The notes beneath the pieces were generated by a model. It saw only the letters and a program-made list of their open reading frames with translations, ran no database searches and was not told the origin of the DNA. Positions 13,201 to 15,682 of a stretch of 58,743 nucleotides of DNA are shown piece after piece. The first letter of the stretch is position 1. Each line of letters opens with the position of its first letter. A program made the position numbers and the translations under genes. This stretch comes from an uncultured Bacilli bacterium (GTDB lineage: Bacteria; Bacillota_I; Bacilli_A; RF39; UBA660): positions 1 through 58,743 of the forward strand of contig CANRDV010000001.1 of the NCBI GenBank assembly GCA_947629475.1, read 5' to 3'.

Positions 13201-13949
13201 TGCAAGCAATATTCTTAGGGAGTGGTTCGAAAGGTAATTCCACTCTCTTAATAACGGATTCAAAAAAAATATTAATTGATGTTGGCTTATCATATACAAG
13301 AACTAAAACAATTCTTGAAAAATATAATTTAACCCCAGATGACATTGATTTTATTCTTCTTACCCATAATCATAAAGACCATATCGGAGGCTTAAGTGTT
13401 TTAGTTAAAAAGACCAAGAAGTTTATCTATGTTCCAAAAGGAATGGTTAAGTCTATTAGAGATTTAGTTGATATGGATTATATTATGCCAGTTACTTCGG
13501 ATGATTTGGAAATAGATGATTTACATATTAAATTTATTCACACTTCTCATGATGCACCTAGTCCGGTTGGTTTTATCTTTGAAGATTCTAAGTCTCTTGT
13601 TTATATAACTGATACGGGTTATTTAAGTAGAAAGAATTTAAGTTATATGCATGATAAGGATATGTATATCATGGAAAGTAATCATGATGTTGAAATGCTT
13701 ATGAATGGAACCTATCCTTATATGACTAAACAAAGAATAGTTGGAGATGAAGGTCACTTATCTAATGAAATGGCTGGAACTTACTTAAAGGAATTAATTG
13801 GAGATAATACCAAGGAAATAGTTTTAATCCATTTAAGTGAACATAATAATACGGAGGAAATTGCTTTAAATACAGTTAGAAATTTAATTGATAATAAAGT
13901 TTTAGTTGTTGCTGCAAGACAAGAGGAGGATATGAGTGTTTTGATATGA
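13200..13949 (+). CDS. MBL-fold metallo-hydrolase (YycJ/WalJ-like)
   Basis: HNHKDH (HxHxDH) motif. The position before rlmH matches the yycJ-rlmH arrangement. Confidence 0.85.
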   Translation: MQAIFLGSGSKGNSTLLITDSKKILIDVGLSYTRTKTILEKYNLTPDDIDFILLTHNHKDHIGGLSVLVKKTKKFIYVPKGMVKSIRDLVDMDYIMPVTSDDLEIDDLHIKFIHTSHDAPSPVGFIFEDSKSLVYITDTGYLSRKNLSYMHDKDMYIMESNHDVEMLMNGTYPYMTKQRIVGDEGHLSNEMAGTYLKELIGDNTKEIVLIHLSEHNNTEEIALNTVRNLIDNKVLVVAARQEEDMSVLI

Positions 13950-14398
13950 TAAAAATTATTTGTATAGGAAAAATAAAAGAGAATTATTTAAAGGATGCCA
14001 TAAGTGAATATTCTAAAAGACTCTCTAAATATACTAAGTTAGAAATAATTGAATTACCTGATTCTTCATATGATATTAAAAAGACTTTAGAAGTTGAAAG
14101 AGATAATATCTTAAAAGTATTAAATAAAAATGATTATAATATCTTACTTGATATAGATGCTAATACTTATACTAGTTTAGAATTTGCAAATCATTTAGAT
14201 AAAATAAGAAATTTAAATAGTAATATAACTTTTCTAATAGGTGGTTCAAATGGAGTTCATCTTGATATAAAAAATATAGTTAATGAAAGAATTTCGTTTT
14301 CTAAATTAACTTTTCCTCATCAACTATTTAGAGTTATCTTATTAGAACAGATATATCGAAGTTATAAAATTTTAAATAATGAAGAATATCATAAATAA
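13946..14398 (+). CDS. rlmH: 23S rRNA (pseudouridine1915-N3)-methyltransferase
   Basis: 150-aa SPOUT protein MIKIICIGKIKENYL..GGSNG typical of RlmH. Confidence 0.9.
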   Translation: MIKIICIGKIKENYLKDAISEYSKRLSKYTKLEIIELPDSSYDIKKTLEVERDNILKVLNKNDYNILLDIDANTYTSLEFANHLDKIRNLNSNITFLIGGSNGVHLDIKNIVNERISFSKLTFPHQLFRVILLEQIYRSYKILNNEEYHK

Positions 14399-14458
14399 CT
14401 AGGGTTACCTGGTTATTTTTAACCTTAATATATCTAATTAGTTATACTATAGGCAAAT

Positions 14459-14540
14459 AAAAAAGCCCATTAGGACTTTTTTATCTAAAAATTTTCTATA
14501 AAGGAGGTGGTTCCATAATGCAAAGAGAACCTTTCCTCAT
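14459..14540 (-). ncRNA. Candidate antisense-type sRNA (unit 1 of the tandem type I TA-like locus)
   Basis: Minus-strand promoter TTGCTA-17-TAATAT (14575..14547). Minus-strand terminator AGUCC-UAAU-GGGCU followed by U6 (about 14482..14459). The transcript would contain CACCUCCUUU, which is anti-Shine-Dalgarno. Confidence 0.35.
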
Positions 14541-14749
14541 GTATACATATTATCATAAAATTTTAGTTTTAGCAAGGACTTTTTCATTTTTTTTAGAAAT
14601 TTAAAAATGAACCTTGTTTTTTAAACTAAGATATGTTATGTTAGTATCATGGATATATCTAATTCGTTAGGTGCTAATCCTTTATAGACAAATTATAAAA
14701 ACCACCAAGGAGTTGCAATCTAAAAATTTGTTATAGAGGAGGTGATATC

Positions 14750-14833
14750 ATGACTCATAAGGAAATGAATTTTTTAAGGGTTGTGGTTGTACTACTATTT
14801 GCAGTGGTTTTTGCGCTAATTTTTTTCAACTAG
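14750..14833 (+). CDS. Candidate type I toxin: 27-aa hydrophobic peptide MTHKEMNFLRVVVVLLFAVVFALIFFN
   Basis: Strong RBS AGAGGAGGTG 6 nt upstream of the ATG. The peptide has a polar head and a single TM helix. Own terminator downstream and a convergent antisense promoter. Confidence 0.45.
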   Translation: MTHKEMNFLRVVVVLLFAVVFALIFFN

Positions 14834-14840
14834 GACACTG

Positions 14841-14957
14841 CAAAAAGCACACTAACGATTGTCTACGTTGGTGTGCTTAACCCAAAATTTTAGGGATTAG
14901 TACCTAACTTCTGACAATTAGGTATATCCTTTTTTATTATATGAAGGAACTCTTCAT
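14841..14957 (-). ncRNA. Candidate antitoxin RNA convergent to the small-peptide gene (3' overlap type)
   Basis: Minus-strand promoter TTGATT-17-TAATAT (14992..14964). Minus-strand terminator AAGCACAC..GTGTGCTT followed by T5 (14878..14841). The transcript overlaps the 3' UTR and terminator of the peptide mRNA. Confidence 0.4.
14894..14935 (+). terminator. Rho-independent terminator of the small-peptide mRNA
   Basis: GGAT..TACCTAA / TTAGGTA..ATCC hairpin followed by T6. Confidence 0.6.
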
Positions 14958-14998
14958 GTATACATATTATCATATAATTACTAATTAATCAAGAATTT

Positions 14999-15682
14999 TT
15001 ACTTAATATTTAAATAATTTATCGTATTATGAGCTAATATTTTCATAGCATCAACTAAAATATCATCGTCTAAATTTTTAATCTGTCTTAAAGCCGAAAG
15101 TTCAGTACAACCTAGAATAATATATTCACAATTTTCATCTTTTAAACTATTAACAACTTTATAAAAATCATCTAAATTAATAGGATTACCTCCTTTAACT
15201 CCATCATAGATAATATTAGTTATTATTTCTTGATTGGAAGAGTTTGGTATAACACAGTCAATTCCATATTTATTTAATAAATCTTTATAAATTCCACTTT
15301 CAATAGTACCAAGAGTTGCTAATAATCCAACTTTCTTGGCATTTTTATTAGCAAGATATTTTACAGTTTCTAAAACAATATTAATAAATGGAATATTAGT
15401 ATTTTTAACTATTTCTTCAAAAAAGTAAGATGCTGTATTACAAGGCATAACAATGATAGATACACTACATTTCTCTAATTTCTTAACCATTTCTAAAATA
15501 TTAGGAAGAGGGTTAGGTTTAGTATTATCTAAAATATAATCAGTTCTATCAGGTGTTGTTGGGTCATTTATAACTACCATTTCAACATTATCAGTTATTT
15601 TTTCTAAATCATCATTTAAAAGTTCCATAAACTTAACGGTTGCAAGAGGACCAAGTCCTCCAATAATACCTATCTTTTTCAT
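14999..15682 (-). CDS. Aspartate racemase (Asp/Glu racemase family)
   Basis: IGIIGGLGPLAT N-terminus and two catalytic Cys motifs, MPCNTASYF and LGCTELS. Confidence 0.85.
   Translation of the reverse strand: MKKIGIIGGLGPLATVKFMELLNDDLEKITDNVEMVVINDPTTPDRTDYILDNTKPNPLPNILEMVKKLEKCSVSIIVMPCNTASYFFEEIVKNTNIPFINIVLETVKYLANKNAKKVGLLATLGTIESGIYKDLLNKYGIDCVIPNSSNQEIITNIIYDGVKGGNPINLDDFYKVVNSLKDENCEYIILGCTELSALRQIKNLDDDILVDAMKILAHNTINYLNIK

Follow-up and report, generated by a model that had tools for sequence, protein, structure and literature searches.

Organization of the locus

The window analyzed here comprises 58,743 nucleotides (nt) of contig CANRDV010000001.1 from an uncultured Bacilli bacterium, a 1.72-Mb metagenome-assembled genome from rabbit gut with a G+C content of 25.6%. 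All positions refer to this window. Two related units lie downstream of rlmH (13946–14398, plus strand) and are bordered on the other side by a racemase/ATP-grasp operon of the minus strand, whose last gene occupies 14999–15682. Unit 2 (14614–14992) contains a small open reading frame (ORF) with its own Shine-Dalgarno (SD) sequence and a convergent antisense gene. It is probably an intact member of an undescribed, lineage-restricted family of modules resembling toxin–antitoxin (TA) systems of type I. Unit 1 (14428–14580) is a gutted copy and most likely a decaying remnant. The features are listed in Table 1.

The elements of both units named in a preliminary description of this DNA were all located again in the sequence, the ORF list and a repeat search, and a recount confirmed the match of 24 of 27 positions between the SD blocks of unit 1 (14483–14509) and unit 2 (14718–14744). 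Homology with other copies led to one correction. The plus-strand promoter of unit 2 reads TTGTTT-17-TGtTATGTT, and the predicted mRNA starts at about position 14651 (GGAUAUAUC). An alternative −10 element, TAGTAT at 14642–14647, overlaps that of this promoter. A generic promoter and terminator scan alone gave no significant result (six promoter-like sites versus 5.5 expected, no terminators); no terminator passes the G+C rule of the scan in a genome of 25.6% G+C. The observation goes beyond chance because the same blocks recur in at least ten loci of the window genome and in hundreds of loci elsewhere.

The predicted mRNA of unit 2 ends at about 14936 and the antisense RNA runs from 14957 to 14841, so that the two would overlap by about 96 nt. 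The antisense RNA of the window stops just past the stop codon and does not overlap the ORF. It begins with a 5' hairpin (AUGAAG-AGUUC-CUUCAU, 14957–14941) and an A-rich linker, followed by a hairpin complementary to the mRNA terminator (14929–14894) and by its own terminator hairpin (14877–14846) with a U-run that corresponds to the plus-strand A-run 14842–14846. The 3' block of the mRNA has three roles, as mRNA terminator, as partner of the 5' block and as the chief site of antisense binding. No other DNA of the family is as well conserved, and this block served as search pattern. Both units share an exact 21-mer, TCATGTATACATATTATCATA, at 14538–14558 and 14955–14975, within a 69-nt repeat of 72% identity. 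Two minus-strand ORFs (14485–14556 and 14890–14973, MIICIHEE...) were rejected as genes because they begin with an ATG within the −10 element, at a point upstream of where transcription is predicted to start.

The racemase/ATP-grasp operon ends at 14999 and has no terminator of its own ahead of the antisense promoter (14999–14841, minus strand). Read-through from the operon would enter the antisense RNA and stop at the terminator 14877–14842, and could add to the level of antitoxin RNA.

Table 1. Features of the locus downstream of rlmH (sRNA, small RNA; MFE, minimum free energy structure).
Position	Strand	Feature	Basis
14393–14423	+	rlmH terminator hairpin AAATAACTAGG-GTTA-CCTGGTTATTT and T-run; upstream border of the locus	Inverted repeat I21, sequence; kept in G011
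14428–14444	+	Unit 1: remnant of the mRNA 5' block, 17 nt, ATATATCTAATTAGTTA	Direct repeat D2, 94% identical to 14653–14669
14457–14484	−	Unit 1: A/U-flanked hairpin AAAAAAGUCC-UAAU-GGGCUUUUUU; possible sRNA terminator, looks bidirectional	Inverted repeat I15, fold
14483–14521	+	Unit 1: SD block ATCTAAAAATTTTCTATAAAGGAGGTG and start-codon remnant (ATG 14518–14520)	Complement would be the anti-SD part of the hypothetical sRNA
14538–14580	−	Unit 1: antisense-type promoter, −35 TTGCTA 14575–14570, 17-nt spacer, TGaTAATAT (−10 14552–14547)	Same block as in all family members
14581–14650	+	Spacer and unit-2 promoter, −35 TTGTTT 14614–14619, 17-nt spacer, TGtTATGTT 14634–14642 (−10 14637–14642)	Aligns with TTGACx-17-TATAAT of the paralogues
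14651–14680	+	Unit 2: mRNA 5'-terminal block GGAUAUAUCUAAUUCGUUAGGUGCUAAUCC, pairs with 3' block 14894–14929	Inverted repeats I7 and I10, MFE, centroid, alifold
14678–14742	+	Unit 2: anti-SD UCCUUUAUAG (14678–14687) paired with UUAUAGAGGA of the SD region	MFE, centroid, alifold of types A and B
14735–14742	+	Unit 2: SD AGAGGAGG	Sequence
14750–14833	+	Unit 2: toxin-like ORF, 27 residues, MTHKEMNFLRVVVVLLFAVVFALIFFN, ATG 14750; polar head and one hydrophobic helix	Homologous ORFs elsewhere
14894–14938	+	Unit 2: mRNA 3' block (GGAUUAGUACCUAAC...AAUUAGGUAUAUCC) and U-tract; hairpin 14894–14929, T6 14930–14935	Repeats, alignment, folds
14841–14957	−	Unit 2: predicted antisense RNA, ~117 nt, full-length match of covariance model R1	Window copy is one of the seed sequences of R1
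14959–14992	−	Unit 2: antisense promoter, −35 TTGATT 14992–14987, 17-nt spacer, TGaTAATAT (−10 14969–14964)	Sequence; family-wide block

Unit 2 belongs to a multicopy family

Unit 2 matches at least ten further loci of its own assembly at 70–72% identity, in addition to partial copies; the number of intact paralogues in this genome, unit 2 included, is ten or more. An alignment of ten copies from this genome has a fixed order of blocks with variable sequence between them: the promoter TTGACx-17-TATAAT, the 5' block GGATATRCTTAATTCGTTAGGTGCTAATCC, AAGGAGG with an ATG, an ORF of 25–29 codons, the hairpin GCACACTAACG...CGTTAGTGTGC, the segment GGATTAGTACCTAAC...AATTAGGTATATCC with a T-run, and finally ATGAAG...CTTCATGTATACATAWTATCATA...CAAG. 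The ORFs of the paralogues diverge strongly in their nucleotides, yet each peptide consists of a short polar head followed by a single hydrophobic helix, as in MTLREFFLHVVILLLVVLLYIMYLHQ, MLKKEFFFQLVLILQLVIILILALATLGG, MTGRELFLNVIILGLIIIIVLLLLR and MTQREFFLHVLILLLVGIIYIMMLNN. For comparative analysis about 140 copies were gathered through the shared 3' hairpin. The preliminary description had made its reading depend on conservation of the ORF in related genomes. Such conservation is indeed found, with homologous hydrophobic ORFs of 25–31 residues in about 90 units despite high nucleotide divergence.

Of 22 congeneric genomes, 14 have BLAST matches (as many as 18 in one genome), and copy number reaches 10–18 in genomes of 1.2–1.7 Mb. 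A scan with the 3'-hairpin pattern (one genome per species) returned at least 110 contigs. Among the contigs listed, nearly all are labelled uncultured Bacilli bacterium and derive mostly from rabbit ('Lapin'), with a few from mouse gut (MGBC) or other sources (BRZ). Within the same bacterial family, a covariance model of the antisense RNA matches 74 of the 150 genera sampled, frequently at several sites in one genome. The 137 genomes searched from 25 other families of the class gave no match.

Two further subtypes were recognized. Type B, carried by the contigs of the pattern scan, has a shorter 5' untranslated region (UTR) and a strikingly conserved peptide of 30 residues, MRK[SQT]EKYLC[ST]IIILLIIVILIILIKIVPTV. 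Type C, found via weak matches of the covariance model, is unlike in sequence but has the same architecture and encodes the peptide MNKREYHIKLLQHIFLILLLLIVLIIIIKK.

Scans of seven family peptides and of the unit-1 ORF remnant against Pfam and NCBIfam gave nothing meaningful, and an Rfam scan of 14300–15100 with E-values up to 10 returned noise only. The csRNA family was considered as identity of the unit-1 sRNA and rejected: the score is 19 bits versus a gathering score of 57, and the csRNAs are architectural look-alikes of which the unit-1 sRNA is not a member. Judged from sequence, the family is undescribed, lineage-restricted and type I TA-like, of the 3'-overlap kind.

In 29 of 81 type B units a tRNA gene lies on the antisense strand, 137–151 nt from the 3'-hairpin anchor (for example L044:1503–1760 in minus orientation, L062, L067, L103 and L133). 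At least eight tRNA specificities are represented (Lys, Leu, Phe, Met, Ala, Arg, Thr and Val). The near-fixed spacing and strand place the antisense gene directly downstream of the tRNA genes and in the same direction. The spacer between tRNA gene and type B unit is conserved and contains a hairpin, ACTCG...CGAGT, and TATCAATCTGG adjoining the CCA end. This adjacency could reflect insertion at tRNA 3' ends, or read-through that couples the antitoxin RNA to tRNA transcription.

Promoters, RNA folds and coding potential are conserved

A minus-strand promoter, TTGnnn-spacer-TAnnnT, is located about 30 nt past the T-run in 78 of 79 full units. The spacer is 17 nt long in 77 of them (18 nt in one) and a TG extension is present in 77, while the last three bases of the −35 element and the spacer sequence are free to vary. 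The plus-strand promoter was found in 70 of 78 full units. Its −10 element ends 6–7 nt ahead of the 5' block, and the 5' block therefore corresponds to the 5' end of the mRNA.

All three predicted RNAs fold more stably than expected, with z = −7.4 for the 287-nt transcript of unit 2 (−89.2 kcal/mol), z = −4.5 for the antisense RNA and z = −3.2 for the unit-1 sRNA. The MFE and centroid structures of unit 2 and the alifold structures of both subtypes agree on the architecture of the mRNA. The 3' block that immediately precedes the U-tract is paired with nucleotides 1–30 of the message, the CCUUU next to the 5' block pairs with the SD, and a hairpin forms after the stop codon.

The helix between the 5' and 3' ends occurs in the variants CTAATCC/GGATTAG, CTATTCC/GGAATAG, CTGTTCC/GGGACAG and CTAGTCC/GGACTAG. 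The changes in CTGTTCC/GGGACAG and CTAGTCC/GGACTAG are uncompensated in the local 3' hairpin and therefore argue for the long-range helix. In type C, unrelated 5' and 3' blocks are again complementary to each other (−28.8 kcal/mol versus −12.6 ± 3.1 kcal/mol for shuffled sequences; cross-type combinations range from −8 to −15 kcal/mol). At the SD, the variant GGGGG of locus L055 co-occurs with the anti-SD CCCC.

For the antisense RNA, alifold of a curated set identified pairs of the terminator with 4 to 16 double compensatory changes between subtypes. Several positions form G·U pairs on the antisense RNA's own strand and would be A·C on the other strand. Joint alifold of both antisense subtypes on a raw MAFFT alignment lost the 5' hairpin and the terminator through misalignment; the curated set recovered the terminator. 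The support for the 5' hairpin (AUGAAG...CUUCAU versus CAAG-GAAA-CUUG) is by eye only.

The transmembrane core of type B, compared across 41 distinct genes, varies at codon positions 1, 2 and 3 with counts of 19, 2 and 31, and ten of the changes at position 1 are synonymous changes of Leu. A near-invariant second and a most variable third position form the signature of a coding sequence.

These features place unit 2 close to the type I class: a small (<60 residues) hydrophobic ORF with its own SD lies on a short predicted mRNA, and an antisense gene complementary to this mRNA is present at sequence level. Furthermore, the pairing of the mRNA 5' end with the 3' end covaries, as expected for a closure of the hok type.

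The toxin-like ORF is lost and the antisense gene is kept

About 85 of the approximately 140 collected units are intact. About 25 others retain a complete antisense gene but have lost either the entire ORF or the 5' portion of the toxin gene; the last toxin codons are often still visible. Approximately eight units carry a precise lesion of translation and retain the antisense promoter. The SD is deleted in L075, L126, L122 and L151, the start codon is changed from ATG to ATA in L156 and L050, the start region is deleted in L146, and a frameshift in the A-run of codons 2–4 is present on contig C24 of the window genome and in L178. In the latter two (G000:C24:3662-4032 and L178 on G148:C2), which are independent cases, a run of A8 in place of A7 disrupts the toxin ORF. 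This difference of one base could be an inactivation hot spot, phase variation or a homopolymer error of the assembly.

The reverse pattern, an intact toxin gene with a lost antisense promoter, was not observed among the collected units. Units first scored without this promoter either have it or are cut by a contig end, with one exception on contig C8 of the window genome. The exception is a rearranged second unit whose promoter is located further downstream. In the window genome, ten of ten ORFs of the family type are followed by the 3' block and the promoter. One-sided loss is what would be expected if the peptide were harmful without the RNA, and it fits a pair of toxin and antitoxin.

In tandem arrays, a second rearranged or orphan unit may directly follow an intact one (G000:C8:9299-9623 and G000:C9:9978-10138). 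In the second unit on C8, the 3' block is separated from the promoter by an insertion that comprises a fragment of the ORF of another paralogue and a 5' block in inverted orientation. On C9, an antisense gene is left as an orphan, accompanied by the end of a toxin ORF.

Unit 1 is a deletion derivative of a full unit

The closest relative, genome G011, has the orthologous site (locus L009) with the order rlmH, unit 1, unit 2. Thus, a homologous peptide gene does lie next to rlmH in a relative, as the preliminary description had suggested should be looked for, and its ORF is 98% identical to that of the window. Unit 1 of G011 still contains ATGACTCAAAAAGAA (MTQKE), joined directly to CCTTTCCTCATGTATACATATTATCATA of the antisense-promoter block. 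Unit 1 is therefore a full unit that lacks the segment from about codon 5 to the antisense 5' hairpin, in line with the earlier view of it as a decayed duplicate. Both ends of the deletion carry a motif similar to AAGGAA/AAAGAA, and a deletion by microhomology is plausible. The plus-strand ORF of unit 1 (28 residues, 14518–14604) is not conserved in G011 and was rejected as a junction artefact.

Identity between the window and G011 differs along the locus. It is 96% for rlmH, 97%, 98% and 94% for the 5' UTR, ORF and 3' UTR of unit 2, respectively, and 91% for the unit-1 promoter block. The lowest value of the locus, 74% with indels, is that of the anti-SD stretch of unit 1, and the SD core of unit 1 in G011 reads GGAGAGGCGG. 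The remnant of the 5' block is partly deleted in G011. Two substitutions in the hairpin 14457–14484 favour the plus-strand version there, so that its strand assignment is uncertain. The predicted sRNA of unit 1 would start near 14540 and comprise about 85 nt (14540 to ~14455).

As a whole, unit 1 was found only in the window and in G011 (84% identity). An SD block beside an antisense promoter is restricted to the window locus and its orthologue, and this arrangement amounts to one to three cases versus 117 standard units in 2.6 Mb of collected sequence. The paralogous loci C83 and G011:C3 have the roughly 100-nt spacer found around 14581–14650 in common with the window; their copy of the upstream promoter is recognizable but ruined, and there is no SD block. 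The ancestral tandem was therefore copied, and the upstream piece was left to decay. Taken together, the sequence comparisons suggest that unit 1, although it may still be transcribed, is in all likelihood decaying and was not selected as a second antitoxin.

Two other deletion variants were noticed, each different from unit 1. L032 (G005:C35, ~880–1030) lacks the 3' UTR, and its SD and ORF are followed at once by the antisense promoter. In L024 (G018:C7, ~300–370) a degenerate SD block (AAGGTGAG) lies beside the promoter, upstream of two intact tandem units.

In G011, unit 2 is followed by an ORF of 196 residues with unknown function on the other strand and then by an orphan 3' UTR with an antisense gene. 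This orphan matches window positions 14840–15005 at 95%, and the arrangement in the window therefore differs by recombination between two directly repeated 3' blocks. On L009 (G011:C14, reverse strand, ~1040–1630 and ~1863–2478), next to the extra 196-residue ORF, a fragment of a transposase-like ORF replaces the racemase operon. The site downstream of rlmH is a hot spot of rearrangement.

Proposed mechanism

A sigma-A promoter would give rise to an mRNA of about 285 nt that encodes the 27-residue membrane peptide. With its first 30 nt paired to the 3' UTR ahead of the U-tract and the adjoining CCUUU paired to the SD, the message is proposed to be closed, stable and poorly translated. The convergent extended −10 promoter about 30 nt past the mRNA end would produce the ~117-nt antisense RNA. 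Over about 96 nt this RNA is perfectly complementary to the 3' UTR, and the region of complementarity takes in the segment to which the mRNA 5' end is paired. If the system works like RatA/txpA, SR4/bsrG and SR5/bsrE, the duplex would be cleaved by RNase III and decay; its formation may also alter how the mRNA folds near the SD. The window genome encodes RNase III, two paralogues of RNase J (J1/J2) and RNase Y, so that the degradation route of these systems (PMC6562991) is available.

The mRNA 5' end (GGAUAUAUCUAAUU-CG-UUAGGUGCUAAUCC) and the antisense RNA (GGAUAUACCUAAUU-loop-GUUAGGUACUAAUCC) are near-copies of each other and have the same 3' target. Since both bind the same 3' segment, binding of the antitoxin must open the closure. 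The opened closure may expose the 5' end to RNase J or, alternatively, the closure may shield a silent pool of mRNA. In unit 1, an internal deletion has fused the 5' UTR to the antisense promoter. The anatomy, the size and distribution of the family, the covariation, the coding signature and the asymmetric decay are seen in the sequences; transcription, toxicity and RNase III-dependent neutralization are inferred.

Alternative interpretations

Several points weigh against the interpretation of unit 2 as an intact type I TA-like module and of unit 1 as its decaying relative. The units were collected via the 3' hairpin, and toxin genes without this hairpin were sought only in the window's own genome. 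No known toxin or Rfam family matches, so that the assignment is based on architecture and on the pattern of evolution. The unusual degree of conservation of type B peptides across genera could point to a specific, non-toxic function in the membrane. Finally, the promoter and hairpin of unit 1 are intact in both carrier species and the anti-SD stretch is accessible in the predicted sRNA, so that expression and a certain effect in trans are conceivable. The conservation of the type B peptides, together with the lack of homology to any described toxin in the Pfam and NCBIfam scans, speaks for a small protein that has a physiological task in the membrane, such as regulating a membrane complex or forming part of one, and whose expression is tuned by a cis-antisense RNA. 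Such a protein is unlikely, however, given that translation was knocked out repeatedly and independently while the antisense gene was retained, that the family expanded to 10–18 copies per genome with divergent peptides keeping only their hydrophobic character, and that the SD is tightly sequestered in an mRNA closed from 5' to 3'. These are hallmarks of type I toxins and not of small housekeeping proteins. A non-coding element similar to a miniature inverted-repeat transposable element, bounded by the 30-nt inverted repeats 14651–14680 and 14894–14929 and containing the ORF and promoters by coincidence, would account for the repeats that flank the ORF (I7 and I10), for the high copy number and for the frequent local rearrangements. 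It was rejected as highly improbable because conserved promoters lie beyond both inverted repeats and the ORF is under coding constraint, as seen from its codon-position signature. Moreover, the repeats covary as RNA pairs, including G·U pairs, and neither target-site duplications nor an association with a transposase was seen.

The preliminary description proposed dual control of one toxin, by the cis-encoded RNA with its 3' overlap and by a trans-acting anti-SD RNA from unit 1. The anatomy of the cis module is conserved and covaries across many genera, and this part of the proposal, unit 2 as a type I TA-like module with a convergent antisense RNA, stands as far as sequence can tell. For the trans arm, the ~85-nt sRNA of unit 1 would pair with the SD of unit 2 and possibly with mRNAs of paralogous toxins. 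Its extended −10 promoter is intact with a spacing of 17 nt and lies in the promoter block that is 91% conserved in G011. The predicted sRNA leaves CCACCUCCUUUAUAG unpaired between a 5' hairpin and the terminator-like hairpin, and its predicted duplex with the start region of unit 2 reaches −32.7 kcal/mol (shuffled sequences, −13.8 ± 3.1 kcal/mol), that with the C100 and C6 paralogues −29 to −30 kcal/mol. There are precedents for antitoxins that act on a ribosome-binding site outside the overlap or on a second toxin (SR6 on yoyJ, PMC6562991), and for antisense genes located 5' of the mRNA (TisB/IstR-1, Zor/Orz and ShoB/OhsC, PMC8594479). On the other hand, the complementarity at 24 of 27 positions falls where the 5' UTR is best conserved and is a residue of paralogy, inherited and not acquired. 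The anti-SD segment is the fastest-evolving part of the locus and has only two carriers, C83 and G011:C3 have lost the equivalent upstream promoter and SD block, a fusion of SD block and antisense promoter is rare in the family, and the target SD is already buried in the mRNA fold. Unit 1 thus lacks the conservation of 5'-encoded trans antitoxins of the IstR-1, OrzO and OhsC type, and the conservation tests speak against this arm; its selection as an antitoxin is quite improbable. Equally doubtful is a newly born 'master' antitoxin acting in trans on several paralogous toxin mRNAs, for which predicted duplexes of −29 to −33 kcal/mol with unit 2, C100 and two C6 copies could be quoted. If true, it would show how 5'-type trans antitoxins similar to IstR or OrzO arise from 3'-type cis systems.

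Relation to known type I systems

The mechanism class of type I TA systems is familiar. The modules described here appear to form a new family of a known kind, which is abundant, undescribed and comparatively well resolved: within a large family of uncultured gut Bacilli that have small genomes, roughly every second genus sampled carries it. The many natural copies are a rich comparative data set on the covariation of a toxin mRNA closed from 5' to 3', on an antisense RNA that competes with the 5' end of its own mRNA for one 3' site, and on a mode of decay in which the toxin dies first and the antitoxin survives. Annotators gain an RNA model and a peptide motif for genes that are missed by gene callers, and experimenters gain short, testable constructs. 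The database T1TAdb holds 24 families, 13 of them with Rfam models (PMC8594479).

The par system of pAD1 (Fst/RNAII) resembles the locus in its convergent RNAs and in direct repeats that create complementarity at the translation start of the toxin. In par, however, these repeats are constant in each unit and the two RNAs share a terminator, whereas standard units of the present family have no such repeats and separate terminators for both RNAs, and unit 1 lies upstream. No match to an Fst model, no 5' direct repeats and no shared bidirectional terminator were found.

The hypothetical sRNA of unit 1, and only this part of the locus, is comparable to TisB/IstR-1, ZorO/OrzO and ShoB/OhsC, in which the antisense gene is located 5' of the toxin gene and does not overlap it (PMC8594479). 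The sRNA gene would be upstream and divergent, with short and imperfect complementarity to the 5' UTR and SD. IstR-1, OrzO and OhsC are conserved partners of their toxins, whereas unit 1 is a lineage-specific deletion product that evolves faster than its neighbours.

In hok/Sok of plasmid R1 and AapA1/IsoA1 of Helicobacter pylori, long-distance pairing between the 5' and 3' ends locks the full-length toxin mRNA, and the SD is sequestered. The locking of hok is described by Franch et al. 1997 (as cited in PMC8594479) and the metastable folds of aapA1 in PMC6733600. A long-distance closure and a sequestered SD are also predicted for the present family. In hok/Sok and AapA1/IsoA1, the 5' region is where the antisense RNA binds, and the mRNA becomes active through 3' processing; in the present family, the predicted binding site is the 3' partner of the closure, there is no leader ORF and the host is Gram-positive.

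The features of the 3'-overlapping systems of B. subtilis are summarized in PMC6562991 and PMC8594479. With TxpA/RatA, BsrG/SR4, BsrE/SR5 and YonT/SR6 the family shares a small hydrophobic ORF, several copies per genome, an SD partly sequestered in the mRNA, the availability of RNase III and a convergent antisense RNA of about 100 nt predicted to overlap the mRNA 3' end by about 100 nt (~96 nt in the window, compared with ~100–140 nt in TxpA/RatA, BsrG/SR4 and BsrE/SR5). Unlike the B. subtilis group, it is confined to one family of uncultured gut Bacilli, its peptides and RNAs have no detectable sequence similarity to that group (Rfam, Pfam and NCBIfam), the antisense RNA of the window ends past the stop codon and does not reach the ORF, and the target is the 3' segment that pairs with the 5' end of the same mRNA. 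In its sequence anatomy, the family most resembles the 3'-overlapping systems of B. subtilis, combined with an mRNA closure like that of hok or aapA1.

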